NCBI GenBank assembly: GCA_044238605.1
Contig: JBIICY010000001.1
Span: forward strand, 9,433 to 73,432
From: Patescibacteria group bacterium
Lineage (GTDB): Bacteria; Bacteroidota; Ignavibacteria; Kapaibacteriales; Kapaibacteriaceae
Direction: 5' to 3'
Length of the DNA: 64,000 nt
Position numbers and translations under genes: made by a program. Below the pieces are notes generated by a model. It worked only from the letters and a program-made list of their open reading frames with translations, made no database searches and was not told the origin of the DNA. Positions 235 through 34,117 of the stretch are shown one piece after another (the stretch's first letter is position 1; every line of letters begins with the position of its first letter).

Positions 235-1473
235 TCATAGTGTACCACCACGATAATACTCTTTATACCACGCCACAAATCTCTGCAATCCTGTGCGCAG
301 ATCTGTCTGTGGACGAAACTTTGTGAGCTCAAACAACTCTTCGCAGTCGGCCCATGTTGTTGCTACATCCCCCGGCTGCATGTCAACATACTCCTTGATC
401 GCTGGCATCCCAAGCTCTTGCTCGAGGATCTCCACGAAATCGAGCAGGCTTACAGGAGCCCCGTTGCCGATGTTATACGTAGGGGCGAGCCGGTGGCTCG
501 CCCGCATGGCGTCATCAGCATGTGCCCGCATGGCGTCATCAGCATGTGCCCGCATGGCATCATCATCATGTGCCCGCATGGCGTCATCAGCATGTGCCCG
601 GATGGCATCATCGTCATGTGCCCGGATAGCGTCATCAGCATGCGCCCGGATGGCGTCATCAGCATGCGCCCGGATGGCGTCATCACATGCCCGCGCGGCG
701 CCGTCACATGCCCCGTCACGGGCGAGCCACCGGCTCGCCCTTACCTGATCGTCGTGCGTGTCTACTGCCCCGACAAGGCGCACGATGCTCTCGACGATGT
801 CGTCGATGTACGTGAAGTCGCGGCTTAGGTTGCCATGGTTGTAGATGTTGATGGGCTCTCGGGCAAGGATCTTCTCGGCAAAGGAGAAGTAGGCCATGTC
901 GGGACGTCCCCACGGACCATACACGGTAAAGAAGCGGAGTCCGGTGCACGGGATCTGGTAGAGATGGTTGTAGCAATAGGCCATCAGCTCGTTGCTGCGC
1001 TTGGTTACCGCATACAAACTCACGGGCTGGTCTACTCTGTCGGTTGTGCGAAATGGAACATCCGTATTGGCCCCATACACGCTACTGCTACTAGCATAGA
1101 ACAAGTGACGGGGCTTGTGTCGCCTACAGGCTTCCAGAATATTCAAAAACCCAACGATGTTCGATGAGATGTAGGCATCGGGGTTCTCAATGCTATACCG
1201 CACACCAGCTTGCGCAGCAAGATGACACACCAACTCGGGCTTGTGAGTTTCGAAGATGGATGCGATAAGCCCCTTATCCTCGATATCACCCAGATAGAAC
1301 GTAACAGACGTCCCAAGCTGGGCAAGACGTGCATGCTTTAAGGAGGGGTCGTAGTAGTCGTTGCAGTTATCGATGCCGACAACATTCCAGCCGTCTTCCA
1401 CCAGACGTTTTGCTACGTGATACCCTATGAATCCGGCAATCCCCGTAACGAGAATTGTACGTGTATCGTGCAT
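235..1473 (-). CDS. NAD-dependent nucleotide-sugar epimerase/dehydratase (UDP-glucuronate 4-epimerase-like), carrying an in-frame ~80 aa repeat insertion
   Basis: N-terminus TILVTGIAGFIGYHV (Rossmann GxxGxxG), YASSSSVYG...YAVTK active-site region and C-terminal YNIGNGAPVSLLDFV are typical of WbpP/Cap1J-type epimerases. I trimmed the start to MHDTRTILVTG because the ORF-track N-terminal extension runs into the repeat region. Residues AVDTHDDQVRASRWLARDGACDGAARACDDAIRAHADDAIRAHADD... are encoded by the 24-bp tandem repeat at 482-740. Confidence 0.8.
   Translation of the reverse strand: MHDTRTILVTGIAGFIGYHVAKRLVEDGWNVVGIDNCNDYYDPSLKHARLAQLGTSVTFYLGDIEDKGLIASIFETHKPELVCHLAAQAGVRYSIENPDAYISSNIVGFLNILEACRRHKPRHLFYASSSSVYGANTDVPFRTTDRVDQPVSLYAVTKRSNELMAYCYNHLYQIPCTGLRFFTVYGPWGRPDMAYFSFAEKILAREPINIYNHGNLSRDFTYIDDIVESIVRLVGAVDTHDDQVRASRWLARDGACDGAARACDDAIRAHADDAIRAHADDAIRAHDDDAIRAHADDAMRAHDDDAMRAHADDAMRAHADDAMRASHRLAPTYNIGNGAPVSLLDFVEILEQELGMPAIKEYVDMQPGDVATTWADCEELFELTKFRPQTDLRTGLQRFVAWYKEYYRGGTL
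482..740. repeat. 24-bp tandem repeat (~9 copies, catggcgtcatcagcatgtgcccg-like) bounded by two 21-bp palindromes gggcgagcc(g/a)(g/c)cggctcgccc, lying in-frame inside the epimerase CDS
   Basis: Direct reading of the sequence; the unit length of 24 is 8 codons, so frame is preserved. The same palindrome family appears as a terminator-like hairpin at 33633-33653. Confidence 0.85.
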
Positions 1474-1515: not shown

Positions 1516-1872
1516 GGGCACGATATATCGTGCCCGCAGGGTACACATGGGTACGGGGGTACGCGTAGGGGCGACCCAGCGTGGTCGCCCAATGAAGCGT
1601 AGGGGCGACCCAGCGTGGTCGCCCAATGTCGCCCAATGAAATGGTGGGGAAACAATGTCGCCCTCGCGGTAGCGAGGGCATATGCATCATGCGCGAGCTT
1701 CCTCGGCACTACGTGCCTCGGAATGACGCACGCCTTCGCTTTTTTCAATAGGCGCAAGCGCGCCTGCGGCGCGCTTGCGCCACAACACCAACCTAATGCA
1801 TGCCGCGTCATTCCGAGCGCAGCGAGGAACCCAATGCACGCTGCGTCATTCCGAGCGCAGCGAGGAACCTCG
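1516..1872. repeat. Composite palindromic repeat scaffold: a gggcacgatatatcgtgccc palindrome, then A hairpins (cgtaggggcgacccagcgtggtcgcccaatgaa x2), a B element (~100 bp, contains ccctcgcg.tagcgaggg and ggcactacgtgcc hairpins), a C hairpin (ggcgcaagcgcgcc tgc ggcgcgcttgcgcc, 14-bp perfect stem) and D 39-bp tandem repeats (cgtcattccgagcgcagcgaggaacc...) x2
   Basis: Inverted repeats are visible directly. The same A-B-(C)-D architecture recurs at 2658-2978, 3774-4276, 5057-5565, 10588-10793 and 11578-11895. Confidence 0.85.
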
Positions 1873-3773: not shown

Positions 3774-4276
3774 AATCAGCAATCCCGTAGGGGCGACCCT
3801 ACGTGGTCGCCCAATGAAATGGTGTTCGTAGAGCCGACCCTGCGTGGTCGCCCAATGAAATGGTGTTCGTAGAGCCGACCCTACGTGGTCGCCCAATGAA
3901 ATGGTGTTCGTAGAGCCGACCCTGCGTGGTCGCCCAATGAAGTATTGGGGTGTGTGGTCGCCCAATAAAATGATGGCGTAACAACGTCACCCTCGCGAAC
4001 GAGGGGCATATGCACCATCCGCGAGCTTCCTCGGCACTACGTGCCTCGGAATGACGCACGCCTTCGCTTTTTTCAATAGGCGCAAGCGCGCCTGCGGCGC
4101 GCTTGCGCCACCACACCAAACATTGCACGCCGCGTCATTCCGAGCGCAGCGAGGAACCTAAATGCATGCCGCGTCATTCCGAGCAAAGCGAGGAACCTAA
4201 TGCATGCCGCGTCATTCCGAGCGCAGCGAGGAACCCAATGCACGCCGCGTCATTCCGAGCAAAGCGAGGAACTGCG
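3774..4276. repeat. Composite repeat: A-type hairpin units x4 (~41-bp tandem, gtagagccgaccct(a/g)cgtggtcgcccaatgaaatggtgttc), then B, a C hairpin and D 39-bp units x4
   Basis: Direct reading. It shows the same order of elements as 1556-1872. Confidence 0.85.
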
Positions 4277-5056: not shown

Positions 5057-5565
5057 AGAGAACCTCGCACTGCGTGTTTTGATGCGCGAAGGAGGTTAGC
5101 CCCCTTCTGGTTCTCTGTGCCGTGAATTGGTTTGAACGTGACATGCGTAGGGGCGACCCTACATGGTCGCCCTTTGAAATGGTGGGGAAACAACGTCACC
5201 CTCGCGAACGAGGGTCATATGCACCATCCGCGAGCTTCCTCGGCACTACGTGCCTCGGAATGACGCATGCCTTGTCATTCCGAGCGAAGCGAGGAACCCA
5301 ACGCACGCCTCGTCATTCCGAGCGCAGCGAGGAACCCAATGCACGCCACGTCATTCCGAGCGCAGCGAGGAACCTAATTGCATGCCGCGCCATTCCGAGC
5401 GCAGCGAGGAACCTAATTGCACGCCACGTCATTCCGAGCGCAGCGAGGAACCTAATTGCACGCCACGTCATTCCGAGCGCAGCGAGGAACCTAATTGCAC
5501 GCCACGTCATTCCGAGCAAGGCGAGGAACCCATGTCACGTTTTGATATCCTGACGGCACGTAGGG
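5057..5565. repeat. Composite repeat: spacer, A, B, then D 39-bp tandem units x7 and the shared 40-bp leader
   Basis: Seven near-identical 39-bp units (cgtcattccgagcgcagcgaggaacctaattgcacgcca). The leader atgtcacgttttgatatcctgacggcacgtaggggtg immediately precedes the zeta-like start. Confidence 0.85.
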
Positions 5566-10587: not shown

Positions 10588-10680
10588 GTCATACCCTACA
10601 TTATCGTTATGGCTTGGCCCAACGTAGATGGGAAGTCCACGTATGTGAGGTGGTACCTGCAGAGGCACCTGATGCACGCT
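10588..10680 (+). pseudogene. Degenerate remnant of the zeta-like kinase 5' end (leader plus first ~25 codons), followed by D-type 39-bp repeats (10670-10790)
   Basis: gtcataccctacattatcgttatggcttggcccaacgtagatgggaagtccacgtatgtgaggtggtacct aligns with 5566-5640 (ggatacaccctacattatcgttatcgccggacccaacggagttgggaagtcaacgtttgcgaagtggtacct) but has lost the P-loop. Confidence 0.45.
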
Positions 10681-10793
10681 GCGTCATTCCGAGCGTAGCG
10701 AGGAACCCAATGCACGCCGCGTCATTCCGAGCGTAGCGAGGAACCCAATGCACGCCGCGTCATTCCGAGCGTAGCGAGGGACCTCGCTGTTCG

Positions 10794-11913: not shown

Positions 11914-12801
11914 TCTCTTAATCACTTCCTTCAGCGCATTCGTCAGATGAATGTACTGCTCGCGCAGGTTTTCGGGCATGGCGTCGAGCTGACGTTGCAC
12001 GGCGTCCATGTCTCCGCGGACGAGTGGACCTGTGAGCGCAAAGGGGGTGCCATCGTGCATGGCTTTGGCGGCGTTGTCCAGCGTGCGCTGCATGATGGGC
12101 ACGAGAAACGTCTCCGCTGGTATGCCAGCCTCATTTGCCAAACCACGCGCTAGATCATACGCCGCATAGGTAAAGTTCGATGCAGCTACTGCAGCTGCAT
12201 GATACCGCCGCTTCGACACTGGATCTGTCTTCGGCAACCGGAACGGGAAGCCCCCTGTGAGCTTGACAAACTCTTCGGTAAGGGGCCACGCATCATCATC
12301 ACACTCCACGCCCCAGCCTATGCCGTTAAGCGCCGATGGGTCTACAGAACCAAATGTCTGGAATGGGTGCGCCGCCGCAATCCTCGCCCCACATGCACGA
12401 AGGGGCTCCAAGATGTCCGTACCGAGCGAGCCGTTCACATGCATCACGAGTGATCCTGCAAGGCGCTCTCCATACTGCTCCGCCAATCGCTGGATAACTG
12501 CCGGAAGAAAGGCGTCTTTGCAGGCGAGGAGGAAGATGGATGACGAGGGACTAGGGACTAGGGACGAGGGACTAGGTACTAGGGACGAGGTACTGGGTAC
12601 TAGAGACGAGGTACCTGATACGACAGCTCTTGTTCCGTGTAGAAACTCTCTCGCAGATAGGGTTTCCACATTCAACGTCATCTGGTCCCCAGTCCCTAGT
12701 CCCTCGTCCCTAGTACCTAGTCCCTCGTACCTAGTACCTAGTACCTTCCCAACCGACTCCCCCACTCTTCCTTTTCCGATAATCGTAACATGCGTTATCA
12801 T
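11896..12801 (-). CDS. Rossmann-fold NAD(P)-binding / DUF2520-type oxidoreductase-like protein, with an in-frame ~70-aa insertion of a palindromic repeat element
   Basis: I set the start at MITHVTIIGKGRVGESVGKV (GxGxxG). The C-terminal PFALTGPLVRGDMDAVQRQLDAMPENLREQYIHL is DUF2520-like. Residues LGTRYEGLGTRDEGLGTGDQ...SGTSSLVPSTSSLVPSPSSLVPSPSS are encoded by the 9-mer-armed element at 12538-12748. The C-terminal AASSE-stop is encoded by the cgctactcg microsatellite. Confidence 0.55.
   Translation of the reverse strand: MITHVTIIGKGRVGESVGKVLGTRYEGLGTRDEGLGTGDQMTLNVETLSAREFLHGTRAVVSGTSSLVPSTSSLVPSPSSLVPSPSSSIFLLACKDAFLPAVIQRLAEQYGERLAGSLVMHVNGSLGTDILEPLRACGARIAAAHPFQTFGSVDPSALNGIGWGVECDDDAWPLTEEFVKLTGGFPFRLPKTDPVSKRRYHAAAVAASNFTYAAYDLARGLANEAGIPAETFLVPIMQRTLDNAAKAMHDGTPFALTGPLVRGDMDAVQRQLDAMPENLREQYIHLTNALKEVIKRAASSE
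12538..12748. repeat. MITE-like palindromic element: arms built from 9-bp units (gggactagg/gacgaggga on one side, inverted cctagtccc/gtacctagt on the other) around a ~75-bp unique core; inserted in-frame inside the DUF2520 CDS
   Basis: The arms at 12541-12612 and 12687-12746 are reverse complements made of 9-mers. Related copies are at 14485-14554, 15255-15392 and 29016-29078. Confidence 0.8.
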
Positions 12802-14556: not shown

Positions 14557-15891
14557 TCAAGCTACCCACACCCTCTCCACATGGTTTACACCATAGTGGT
14601 ACACAATGTCCTTGTACGAAGGCACATCGTAGAGTACAACGTCTGCTCGTTTACCAACTTCGAGGGAGCCACATGTGGCTGATATGCCAAGTGCAGCCGC
14701 ACCGTTGATGGTGGATGCAACAATGGCTTCTTCGATGCTCATACGCATGTTCATGCAGGCAAGCGACATGATCGTTGGCATGCTCTCGCTGTAGCTCGAC
14801 CCCGGATTGCAATCTGTGGCAAGGGCAACGACAGCCCCTTCGGCGATCATCGTGCGCGCATCCGGATATGGCAGACGAAGCGTGTAAGCAGTGCCTGGAA
14901 GCAGCGTGCATACAACTCCTGCATCACGCAGAATGCGTATCTCGTCGATTGTACTGTGCTCCAGGTGATCGGCGCTGATACACCCAAGCTCCGCAGCCAT
15001 CTGCGAGGCTCCGATGAGCGCAATTTCATCCGCATGAACCTTGAGCTTGAGCCCAAGCTCCTTGGCTTTCTTCAGTATTCGCGTAGACTGCTCAACAGTA
15101 AAGAACCCTGCATCTGTGAACACATCACAGAATTCAGCAATCCCCTGCTCTGCAACAGCGGGTAACATCTCATTGATAACGATGTTTACGTATGCCTCGG
15201 GATCATGCTTCCACTCAGGGGGCACGGCGTGAGCACCGAGGAAGGTGATGAAGACACTAGGTACTAGGGACGAGGGACTAGGTACTAGGGACGAGGAACG
15301 AGGGACTAGGGACGAGGGACTAGGTACCGGGGACGAGGGACTAGGGACGAGGGACGGAGACTGCTGTACCTTGTACCTAGTACCTTGTACCTTCTTCGTC
15401 GCTTCCAACATCTTCAGCTCGCTCTCTGTATCCAACCCATAGCCGCTCTTGATCTCCACCGTCGTGGTGCCATGAGCCAGCGCAGATTGAACGAGCTTGC
15501 GTCCGTTTGCTGCGAGCTGCTCGAGCGTTGCCTCGCGCACGGCGCGCATGGTTGTGAGGATGCCACCGCCTTCTGCGGCGATCTCTGCGTACGTTGCGCC
15601 TGCGACACGACGCGCGAATTCATGTGCGCGAGAGCCGGCAAACACCATGTGCGTGTGAGAGTCGACAAATCCGGGCAGAACAGTTTTGCCTGTGCATTCG
15701 ATGACCGTTACATCTGTATGATCAAGGTGCTTGGCGTCTTCTGTTGTGCCTATCCATTCGATCACATCGCTAAAGAGGATAGCCCCTTGATTGATCTCTC
15801 CTACTTCGCGCATGGCTTCGCCAGTAATGAAGGGGGCTCCGTTGGCATCAACAGTTACGAGAGAAGAGATGTTGGTAAGGAGTGTCTTCAT
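14557..15891 (-). CDS. hutI: Imidazolonepropionase (amidohydrolase superfamily), with an in-frame ~45-aa S/P-rich insertion derived from the 9-mer element
   Basis: KTVLPGFVDSHTHMVFAGSRAHEF and HADEI...TDCNPGSS metal-binding motifs. The segment VQGTRYKVQQSPSLVPSPSSPVPSPSSLVPRSSSLVPSPSSLVPS is encoded by the repeat at 15255-15392. Confidence 0.8.
   Translation of the reverse strand: MKTLLTNISSLVTVDANGAPFITGEAMREVGEINQGAILFSDVIEWIGTTEDAKHLDHTDVTVIECTGKTVLPGFVDSHTHMVFAGSRAHEFARRVAGATYAEIAAEGGGILTTMRAVREATLEQLAANGRKLVQSALAHGTTTVEIKSGYGLDTESELKMLEATKKVQGTRYKVQQSPSLVPSPSSPVPSPSSLVPRSSSLVPSPSSLVPSVFITFLGAHAVPPEWKHDPEAYVNIVINEMLPAVAEQGIAEFCDVFTDAGFFTVEQSTRILKKAKELGLKLKVHADEIALIGASQMAAELGCISADHLEHSTIDEIRILRDAGVVCTLLPGTAYTLRLPYPDARTMIAEGAVVALATDCNPGSSYSESMPTIMSLACMNMRMSIEEAIVASTINGAAALGISATCGSLEVGKRADVVLYDVPSYKDIVYHYGVNHVERVWVA
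15255..15392. repeat. 9-mer-armed palindromic element (ggtactagg/gacgaggga units ... gtaccttgtacctagtacc) inserted in-frame in hutI
   Basis: Direct reading; the length is a multiple of 3 and the ORF is uninterrupted. Confidence 0.8.
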
Positions 15892-32704: not shown

Positions 32705-33612
32705 AGTACATTCTAGCCCTCTTCGGTATCGCCCTTGTTGGCTGCGCGTCTGCGCGAAAAGAGCCCCTTCCCAACACCCAGATCTGGATTGCGAAGTTCG
32801 ACGAGCGTACGCTTGAAGTCAGCGATGTACGACAGATCACCTTTGGCAAAGGATATAAGAACCAGCCATGCTTTAGCAACGATAGCAAGTATCTGCTCTA
32901 TGCATCGGATGAGGATGGCAGCGGATCACCCGATGTTATGAAGTACGATCTTCAACGAGATTCTGCAATGCAGATCACATCGACAGATGCATCAGAGTTT
33001 TCACCAACGCCAACAGCCAATGGCAGATTCACGGCCATACATGTTGCCAAACCCAATGCCGAAGGCGAAGCATACACAGAGTCTCAAGAACTCTGGGAAT
33101 ACGATTCATCAGGTAAGGGGCTTGGACCGATCATCCCGGCAACACGCGTTGGATATCATGCATGGCTTGATCAGAATCATGCAGCCGTATTCATTGTTGG
33201 CAGTGAGGATGCGAAGGTTCCACACAAGCTTGTTGTCTATAATACTGTGGACTCAACCAAACTGGACGTAGCAACGAACATTGGCCGCTGTATCAAGCGC
33301 GCACCCAACGGCATGCTTACCTATGTCGATAAATCAGATTCCACTGCCTACAAGATCATCGCAACAGCTGGGGATAATCAGAGCGGCGATACACTCGTTA
33401 CCCTGCCAAAGGGCACCGAAGACTTCTGCTGGATGTATGAGGGTACGATCTTTACCTTCGCGAATGGAACGCTGTATGGGTGCGCTACGTACAATCAGCC
33501 TCGCACATGGAAGCCATTTGTTTCTCCCTATGTTGACGGCACGATCAGCCGGCTTGTCATGAGTCCCGACAGCAAGTTTTTTGCCTGGGTGGTGAAGAAG
33601 AACAGCGAGTAG
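32701..33612 (+). CDS. Lipoprotein with TolB-like beta-propeller repeats
   Basis: Lipobox LVGCAS; WD40-like beta-propeller-style repeats (YLLYASDEDGSG..., FTAIHVAKPNAEGE...). Confidence 0.45.
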   Translation: MKYILALFGIALVGCASARKEPLPNTQIWIAKFDERTLEVSDVRQITFGKGYKNQPCFSNDSKYLLYASDEDGSGSPDVMKYDLQRDSAMQITSTDASEFSPTPTANGRFTAIHVAKPNAEGEAYTESQELWEYDSSGKGLGPIIPATRVGYHAWLDQNHAAVFIVGSEDAKVPHKLVVYNTVDSTKLDVATNIGRCIKRAPNGMLTYVDKSDSTAYKIIATAGDNQSGDTLVTLPKGTEDFCWMYEGTIFTFANGTLYGCATYNQPRTWKPFVSPYVDGTISRLVMSPDSKFFAWVVKKNSE

Positions 33613-33630
33613 CGCATAAACAAAAAGGGC

Positions 33631-33752
33631 AAGCCACCGGCTCGCCCTTTTGATTTTTCTCGATATCTGGGCACGATGTATCGTGCGGCTATGTGTTTCT
33701 CGCTGTTTCGGCACGATACATCGTGCCGCTATCTTGCTACTCGCTACTCGCT
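33631..33752. repeat. Cluster of hairpins: gggcaagccaccggctcgccc (terminator-like, followed by a T-run), two cacgat(g/a)tatcgtg palindromes, then a cgctactcg microsatellite
   Basis: Direct reading. It sits between the convergent genes 32701-33612 (+) and 33755-34117 (-). Confidence 0.7.
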
Positions 33753-33754
33753 GC

Positions 33755-34117
33755 TCACTCTTCCGTGTACAACGTCGAATTGTCTACGTAGATCAAATAA
33801 TCTTTGATCTTGCCGTCTACCATGTTGAACACGTTTGCAAATGGCACTTGAAGCGTGGAGCCGCTGTGACGTGTGTATGTAACGGTGCCCTCTGTCAGAA
33901 CGAAACCATCGCCTTCGCGTACGTTGAGGTCTGAGTGCTTGATGGCTGCGATGCTCTGGAACCATCCCTCGAGGAAGGCCACGATCGTATCCTTGCCTAC
34001 AACTGCTGGGTGATTTGCGAAACGGAACTGTGCGTCATCTGTCAAGAACGTACCGAACAGGACATGATCCTTTGCATCGATACCATTGAACAACACCGAA
34101 AAATCTGGGTTTGCCAT
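33755..34117 (-). CDS. SnoaL-like / NTF2-like domain protein
   Basis: 120 aa with alpha+beta cone-type composition (FLEGWFQSIAAIKHSDLNVREGDGFVLTEGTVTYTRHSG). Confidence 0.5.
   Translation of the reverse strand: MANPDFSVLFNGIDAKDHVLFGTFLTDDAQFRFANHPAVVGKDTIVAFLEGWFQSIAAIKHSDLNVREGDGFVLTEGTVTYTRHSGSTLQVPFANVFNMVDGKIKDYLIYVDNSTLYTEE

Follow-up and report, generated by a model that had tools for sequence, protein, structure and literature searches.

The epimerase gene and the element within it

The 64-kb window examined here (the whole analysed stretch of 64,000 nucleotides, from contig JBIICY010000001.1) carries near its left end a minus-strand gene for a UDP-glucuronate 4-epimerase-like enzyme, and within the coding sequence of this gene lies a 266-bp element (positions 479–744) that is in frame and encodes about 88 amino acids. 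The element is composed of two inverted hairpins, classed below as repetitive extragenic palindromic (REP) sequences, and a tandem array of a 24-bp unit between them (Table 1). A preliminary description of this DNA had recognised the in-frame 24-bp array between palindromes, and had placed it between the VRLV and YNIGNG blocks of the enzyme. Both points are borne out here: Tandem Repeats Finder reports a period of 24 and 8.0 copies at 500–689 (91% matches, score 289), a looser call spans 500–713 with 9.2 copies, and in the protein the insert falls between ...IVRLVGAV and YNIGNG.

The 412-residue host protein matches Pfam Epimerase (E=3.7e-55), its best solved-structure match is a Klebsiella NAD-dependent epimerase (5u4q, E=1e-115), and the core of an AlphaFold2 model agrees with both 5u4q and the Bacillus cereus UDP-GlcA 4-epimerase 6zll (TM-score 0.84–0.85, normalised to the target). 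G11, G14 and G17 of the GxxGxxG NAD motif, together with Y154 and K158 of the catalytic YxxxK motif, are invariant across the aligned epimerases. By its motifs and its Pfam and 5u4q/6zll matches the product is UDP-glucuronate 4-epimerase-like, its specificity being predicted. The 17-residue loop of 5u4q corresponds to 86 residues in the host protein, and the approximately 80 added residues of the preliminary description become about 69 relative to 5u4q and 74–92 relative to close alleles that lack the insert. Pfam returned only families of the short-chain dehydrogenase/reductase (SDR) and epimerase type for the host protein, with matches that end before the insert or skip it and no domain within it; an intein or other inserted domain was rejected on this result.

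An AlphaFold2 model built from a 25-sequence alignment (mean predicted local distance difference test score, pLDDT, of 66.9) places the insert between helix 223–239 and strand 332–335, which is a helix-to-strand connecting loop. The insert itself (residues 241–328) is nominally helical at pLDDT <50, and the model yields its topological position only, not its shape or its distances to the active site. In Rossmann folds, helix-to-strand connections sit at the sheet edge opposite the cofactor site, and the insert is thus expected to form an external excursion. The surface-loop siting suggested previously is upheld in this sense, on a low-confidence model.

Table 1. Positions of the host gene, the parts of the element and related repeats in the window
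Feature	Position	Strand	Basis or context
Host gene, UDP-glucuronate 4-epimerase-like extended SDR, 412 amino acids	235..1473	-	Open reading frame; Pfam Epimerase; structure match
REP arm 1, GTAG head + GGGCGAGCC-GGT-GGCTCGCCC + G	479..504	+	Inverted-repeat and fold analysis
Terminal 13-nt partial unit GATGACGCCATGC, running straight into CGGGCGAGCC of arm 1	504..516	-	Register reading
24-bp unit GAYGAYGCYATSCGGGCRCATGNY in seven canonical copies, which each encode DDA(I/M)RAH(A/D)	517..684	-	Register reading, Tandem Repeats Finder
Degenerate 24-bp unit (685-708, encodes CDGAARAC) + 11-nt head (709-719)	685..719	-	Register reading
REP arm 2, GTAA head + same hairpin as arm 1, inverted	719..744	-	Inverted-repeat and fold analysis
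REP-B, two tandem copies, GTAG-GGGCGACCC-AGCG-TGGTCGCCC-AATG	1565..1628	+	Just upstream of the epimerase start codon
Third REP-core copy, one mismatch, without GTAG head	33627..33647	-	Between A5 and T4; terminator-like, 13 pairs

Anatomy of the element

The arms of the element are 26-nt inverted repeats that are 96% complementary and separated by a gap of 214 nt, and none of 100 dinucleotide-preserving shuffles gave the number of palindrome matches seen in the real sequence. Each arm is itself a 9-3-9 hairpin (9-bp stems, 3-nt loop) with an unpaired head that points outward, GTAG at 479–482 and GTAA at 744–741 on the minus strand. The hairpin at 483–503, which is GGGCGAGCCGGTGGCTCGCCC, returns as its reverse complement, with loop ACC, at 720–740. 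The preliminary description was therefore right that a palindrome is present at both ends, while missing the inverted relation of the two and their GTAG/GTAA heads. Folded as single-stranded DNA, arm 1 reaches -12.1 kcal/mol (z = -4.1) and arm 2 -12.2 kcal/mol (z = -5.3). The minimum-free-energy fold of the element, as mRNA or single strand, pairs the arms with each other, with a modest z of -2.2 for the whole-element RNA fold, and two 24-bp units folded as DNA did no better than shuffles (z = -1.0).

On the coding strand the element runs GTAA-GGGCGAGCCGGTGGCTCGCCC, 11-nt head, CDGAARAC unit, seven GAYGAYGCYATSCGGGCRCATGNY, 13-nt partial and CGGGCGAGCCACCGGCTCGCCC-CTAC. Arm 2 encodes (Q)VRASRWLAR and arm 1, read as CGGGCGAGCCACCGGCTCGCCCCTAC, encodes (M)RASHRLAPT. 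The repeat stretch between the arm hairpins is 216 nt long (seven canonical units, one degenerate unit and the partials); position 719 is shared between the 11-nt head and the inner base of arm 2, and the string CGGGC occurs both in the 24-bp unit and at the arm's inner edge. Three of the six reading frames of the element have no stop codon and two others have one or two, which helps explain how it can be read through. Differences between units fall at third codon positions at five of the seven common variable sites, a bias that fits translation in this frame and is marginal (about p=0.05), the units being non-independent.

The intragenic arms are not intrinsic terminators, since they are followed by GTGAC and CTACG with no T run, unlike the copy at 33627, and a terminator inside the gene was rejected. 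An Rfam scan of the whole window gave no match at the gathering threshold, leaving the hairpins unexplained by a known RNA family.

Alleles in related genomes

A protein search recovered eleven close relatives of the host protein (P0001–P0011; 85–94% identity, 365–396 amino acids), in every one of which the doublet occupies the same position. Counting the window, this makes 12 complete insert-bearing proteins with 11 distinct sequences and inner spacers of 24–71 amino acids, among which the window allele has the longest spacer. Some spacers are not multiples of 8 amino acids owing to truncated units, and all complete alleles recovered are in frame. Copy number thus differs among relatives, and with a unit of 24 bp (8 codons) its changes keep the frame, as the preliminary description had anticipated. 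Identical alleles were recovered from 4–5 contigs, from separate samples where these are recorded, and the architecture of the insert is found in >10 independent assemblies (JGI, ENA, NCBI, Logan). Two further insert-bearing examples are partial (contig L135 and fragment P0121). Near positions 200–170 of L135, on its minus strand, the tblastn alignment breaks in two immediately beyond the loop, at query residues 344–355, which suggests a 1-nt frameshift or a contig assembly error.

Other proteins that are equally close (P0012–P0015) lack the doublet and have other repeats in the same loop. At the nucleotide level, four contigs (L001, L004, L005 and L007) have flanking DNA 93–96% identical to the window and no doublet; in this loop L001 and L005 have heptamer arrays, (CTCGCTG)n, and L007 and L004 carry one or two hairpins of the form CCCCGG-NNTGAANN-CCGGGG. 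In a sister lineage at about 74% identity, the loop of L013 contains a copy of a related repeat, REP-B, plus heptamers, and that of L015 contains two GGGCACGATRTATCGTKCCC hairpins. A plain loop of about 20 amino acids is seen in distant relatives (P0030, which bears the name Candidatus Kapabacteria, and P0024), and outgroups and solved homologs have 17–27 amino acids at this place. The ortholog comparison therefore supports the earlier view of a repeat element lying in the gene, absent from equally close orthologs and from outgroups, and the native linker that would have contradicted it, a common non-repetitive segment of similar length in the relatives, was not seen.

Across these lineages (L001, L004, L005, L007, L013, L015) no fewer than five repeat types are found in the loop, which runs between IDDIVE and NIGNG: the REP doublet (REP-A), REP-B, CCCCGG hairpins, GGGCACGAT hairpins and (CTCGCTG)n heptamers. 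To judge from these alleles, the epimerase loop behaves as a hotspot or sink for the dispersed repeats of the lineage.

Selection on insert-bearing alleles

Ratios of nonsynonymous to synonymous substitution (dN/dS, Nei–Gojobori) were computed over the 684 nt upstream of the loop, which encode the N-terminal part. Between the window and insert-bearing alleles dN/dS is 0.065–0.10 and between the window and insert-free alleles 0.03–0.11, at synonymous divergence (dS) of up to 0.42. The low values with or without the insert indicate that purifying selection has continued over substantial divergence and that the gene stays functional. By this measure the protein is evidently still made and working with about 88 extra amino acids, largely (DDA[I/M]RAH[A/D])n, and the insert is probably neutral or nearly neutral. 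The element looks like a tolerated insertion with no apparent regulatory switch.

Membership of the hairpins in a REP family

The exact 21-nt core of the arms was found in more than 117 stretches of other genomes in a scan of one genome per species. Among the matches listed, to which the following statements refer, the hosts are mostly Chloroflexota; others are Acidobacteriota, FCPU426, Planctomycetia, Armatimonadia and Calidithermus (Deinococcota), together with three metagenome-assembled genomes (MAGs), one each of Kapaibacterium, Ignavibacteria and Bacteroidota. Of 140 copies, 62 have GTAC, 56 GTAG and 3 GTAA as the four bases upstream of the core, so that GTAG or GTAC precedes 118 of the 140. 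Presence of an identical 21-nt core in distant phyla (L016–L132) is an odd breadth, REP families being usually lineage-specific. Within the lineage of the window the REP-A family is dispersed at other sites (window 33627, L013, L015, L016, L043 and L077). The window has three copies of the core, of which the third lies about 13 nt after a TAG stop codon at 33611–33613; at a single mismatch and with its terminator-like setting, it agrees with the preliminary description, which had assigned the flanking palindrome and the hairpin near 33633 to the same family.

Further evidence on the nature of the family comes from its arrangement elsewhere. In an Aggregatilineales contig (Chloroflexota; L021) an inverted REP pair flanks an open reading frame with YDY, MPNHLHGLL and YYDHIVR motifs, the best NCBIfam family of which is REP_Tyr_transpos (REP-associated tyrosine transposase, RAYT; E=8e-18, 64.7 bits); its match to Pfam Y1_Tnp is weak. 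An outward-headed doublet like that of the window, with a 27-nt spacer, occurs in L042, and arrays of the REP occur in L059 and L064. Such features are catalogued for GTAG-type REPs and REPtrons in PMC3733652 and PMC3116915. The arms in the window have the short (20–40 bp) stem-loop palindrome and the unpaired GTAG-like end of GTAG-type REPs, and as two inverted REPs able to form one long hairpin they correspond to a REP doublet forming a hairpin (REPIN), with an atypically long gap of 214 nt. They depart from the extragenic location that gives REPs their name, both arms lying inside the epimerase coding sequence. On this combination of features we class the hairpins as GTAG-headed REPs in inverted orientation, of the RAYT-associated doublet type.

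One insert-bearing lineage has, some 1.3 kb upstream of its epimerase, a Y1 transposase gene of the IS200 type (NCBIfam transpos_IS200, 90.8 bits; 8296–8670 of L009, 317–691 of L010) that the window lacks. The window has no RAYT or other Y1 transposase gene, and tblastn searches of it with the RAYT-like protein of L021 and the IS200-type transposase of L009 gave nothing below E=3.

Origin of the element

We propose that a REP doublet (a REP dimer or REPIN, heads outward) was fixed in frame in a permissive loop and that its spacer grew into a minisatellite, and we put the probability of this reading at roughly 0.7. It builds on the anatomy of the element, the membership of its arms in a REP family, the recurrence of the insert at the same site with a variable unit number, the existence of close insert-free alleles and the purifying selection on the flanks. 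In this scheme a REP doublet would have come to lie in frame in the permissive helix-to-strand loop of the Rossmann domain, the spacer would then have expanded by replication slippage or unequal recombination into the 24-bp (8-codon) minisatellite, and strains would have diverged by gain and loss of units and by recombination, the enzyme staying under selection throughout. The doublet could have arrived through RAYT transposition or through recombination with REP-rich DNA; we tentatively infer the former, by a RAYT-type single-strand transposase, and slippage as the means of expansion.

The origin of the 24-bp array bears on the second step. A metagenome scan with a degenerate form of the 24-bp unit returned six stretches, one of which is a true match and belongs to another epimerase ortholog; the other five, each a lone match by chance in an unrelated gene rich in GC, were discarded. 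A protein search with the insert peptide found one fragment, the epimerase P0121, with at least seven near-perfect units. That the unit was found only in the epimerase gene points to local slippage, and on present evidence the minisatellite appears specific to this locus and to have arisen by local duplication beside a REP arm.

Several observations weigh against the proposed doublet origin. Neither the 64-kb window nor any of the related contigs examined has a RAYT gene, and the RAYT-like protein of L021, at 64.7 bits, falls below the NCBIfam curated cut-off of 80. The gap of 214 nt between the arms exceeds the 20–100 bp of most REP dimers (PMC3733652). The peptide search missed the eleven known insert-bearing proteins (P0001–P0011), probably through composition filtering, and is a weak negative, and over the insert the structural model has little reliability, with pLDDT below 50. 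There is also no clean empty site: every close insert-free allele has another repeat, and the insertion event is not reconstructable for this reason. Finally, loop state does not track flank phylogeny. In the upstream (N-terminal) flank the doublet-bearing L009 is 89.6% identical to the window as against 96.2% for the insert-free L005, and downstream of the loop L005 and L009 are 96.7% identical despite their different loop contents, L005 and the window being 83.3% identical there. Such mosaic alleles show recombination at work, which may explain the distribution of loop states in place of repeated insertion or loss.

Taken further, these mosaic flanks would allow the repeats themselves to have arrived by homologous or illegitimate recombination with REP-rich DNA of other strains or loci, the site being a recombination-prone junkyard, and the five repeat types in one loop and the REP-B arrays immediately upstream of the gene fit such a history. 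Recombination accounts for the spread of alleles but not for the first in-frame placement of a complete outward-headed doublet, an architecture that recurs elsewhere in the family (L042, L020, L021), and we consider it unlikely as the source of the element. Terminal inverted repeats of 26 nt and a size of 266 bp would also suit a miniature inverted-repeat transposable element (MITE) derived from a DDE-type insertion sequence, which should be bounded by a target-site duplication; no direct duplication flanks the element (...TTATAC|GTAG... and ...CTTAC|CTGATC), each arm is itself a GTAG-headed hairpin, which is a mark of REPs, and the same arms in L021 flank a RAYT-like gene and not a DDE transposase, all of which makes this derivation very improbable. 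That the segment is a native low-complexity linker or an assembly artefact is suggested by its repetitive composition alone and is scarcely credible given the 17–27-residue loop of outgroups and solved homologs and the same architecture in >10 independent assemblies.

The preliminary description had further seen in the array a potential contingency locus affecting surface polysaccharide. Contingency loci turn expression on and off by way of the reading frame or of promoter spacing. Here repeat number shifts neither, and the proposal lacks support because a 24-bp unit cannot shift the frame, so that length change cannot turn the gene on or off, and because identical alleles recur across samples in 4–5 contigs. 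A related possibility is an adaptive hypervariable locus, in which selected gain and loss of units would tune the epimerase or its partners through loop length and so vary a surface glycan. The at least 11 different insert lengths or sequences among close relatives, the position of the gene within a glycan-modification cluster (GT2, YfhO and Gly_transf_sug, see below) and the third-position excess, which hints at constraint on the peptide, are in its favour. Against this, the 8-codon unit precludes on/off switching, very high switching rates fit poorly with the recurrence of identical alleles, and the insert has no detected domain. Purifying selection is equally strong on insert-free alleles and on alleles with unrelated repeats, which occur side by side, and the third-position excess is itself marginal. 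We regard adaptive variation as quite unlikely. A broader version is distinctly doubtful as well: that dispersed repeats (RAYT-type REPs, heptamer arrays, and hairpins of the CCCGG and GGCACGAT kinds) routinely settle in permissive loops of proteins throughout this Kapabacteria-like freshwater lineage, and that the epimerase loop is maintained as a hypervariable site, with its length or the 26-bp REP–REP stem in the mRNA of the epimerase–GT2 operon selected to modulate the supply of UDP-galacturonate and thereby the surface glycan.

Relation to known systems

A REP doublet in a coding loop has precedents. GTAG and CGTC REPs lying entirely within open reading frames have been reported in several species, where dimers encode 20–30 amino acids and clusters 43–82, and such inserts were argued to occupy linkers or loops and to be neutral in effect (Di Nocera, De Gregorio and Rocco 2013, PMC3733652). 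Like those intragenic dimers, the element described here is built of GTAG-headed hairpins, which commonly occur as opposite-oriented pairs and as a class are associated with RAYT genes. It differs in its 214-nt minisatellite spacer, where 20–100 bp is usual, and in the about 88 amino acids encoded, and its lineage, whose relatives bear the labels Kapabacteria or Kapaibacterium, falls outside the phyla given for GTAG repeats in that study, which also does not describe variation of unit number in populations or a loop common to several repeat families. Intragenic GTAG REP dimers are thus already described, and what is unusual here is the long minisatellite spacer, the lineage, the population allelic series and the presence of at least five repeat types in one loop.

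The likeness to the REPIN–RAYT system (Bertels and Rainey 2011, PMC3116915) lies in two inverted REPs able to form one long hairpin. REPINs do not move autonomously, and their mobiliser is believed to be a single-copy RAYT; they are extragenic, have short conserved spacers and reach tens to hundreds of copies per genome (PMC3116915), whereas here one doublet was seen in 64 kb, inside a coding sequence, with no RAYT found in the window. Rickettsia palindromic elements (RPEs; reviewed in PMC10969869), the classic example of such insertions, are similar in being in-frame palindromic repeats in unrelated metabolic genes that are compatible with fold and function. The in-frame insertion with preserved fold that typifies RPEs appears to apply here too, judging by the flank dN/dS of 0.03–0.11 and the modelled core fold. 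RPEs are about 100–150 bp long with no known transposase and, unlike the present element, no internal minisatellite; sequence relatedness is not expected, and the tag of RPE-4 and RPE-6 is CGTC (PMC3733652) as against GTAG/GTAA here, so that the element does not belong to the RPEs by sequence. With contingency loci and the in-frame variable-number tandem repeats of surface proteins it has in common a coding tandem repeat whose copy number varies by strain, but its 24-bp unit cannot switch and it lies in a cytoplasmic enzyme rather than in a surface protein.

By definition REPs lie outside genes. Clear in-frame examples are uncommon, most of them being known from Rickettsia and from a small number of proteobacterial and PVC-group (Planctomycetes, Verrucomicrobia, Chlamydiae) genomes. 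The locus allows the entry of REP-type elements into coding sequence to be studied, and its alleles (doublets with spacers of 24–71 amino acids, heptamers, hairpins and a plain loop) form a natural series on the tolerance of a Rossmann-fold enzyme for foreign sequence. For annotation it carries a warning, in that the extra segment of about 88 amino acids is derived from repeats and is not a domain.

Neighbouring genes and other repeats in the window

The stop codon of the epimerase gene (237–235) overlaps the ATG (238–236) of a downstream glycosyltransferase family 2 (GT2) gene in an ATGA at 238–235, and from this overlap the epimerase is predicted to be translationally coupled to the GT2 gene, which extends past the window start. 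The GT2 neighbour is also present at orthologous epimerase loci, and the neighbours in orthologous contigs include GT2, Gly_transf_sug and YfhO genes. A role of the epimerase in a surface-glycan pathway is plausible.

REP-B (GTAG-GGGCGACCC-NNNN-TGGTCGCCC-AATG) is a related GTAG-headed family with nine copies in the window, at 1565–1628, 2752, 3787–3941, 5147 and 11668, some of them forming tandem arrays of 34 bp or 41 bp. In L001, L005, L008, L011 and L012 the family likewise occurs upstream of the epimerase. Arrays of a 38–39-bp unit (GTCATTCCGAGCGCAGCGAGGAACC...) occur at 1790–1869, 4124–4272, 5274–5530 and 10672–10783, with 2 to 6.6 copies at 90–97% identity; as they have no spacers, a CRISPR array was rejected.

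Two other genes in the window carry in-frame heptamer arrays. In an amidohydrolase gene (about 14560–15891, minus strand) the array at 15256–15393 has a 21-bp super-period and encodes about 40 amino acids (SPSLVPSPSSPVPSPSSLVP...); it is present in L002 and absent from the L009 ortholog, and represents a second repeat-in-gene polymorphism of the window. A DUF2520/Rossmann-like gene (11899 to about 12790, minus strand) has two arrays in its N-terminal domain, at 12542–12611 and 12685–12746, reading LGTRYEGLGTRDEG... and SSLVPSTSSLVPSPSSLVP, and the distant L013 ortholog is shorter at the same places. Repeats may thus have a general tendency to colonise coding loops in this genome. The heptamers CTCGCTG and CTCGCTA (window 33727–33756) resemble the REP tail CTCGCCCCTAC, and in L016 a heptamer run at 1843–1924 leads straight into CTCGCCCCTAC at its end, and slippage at REP tails may be the source of the heptamer arrays.

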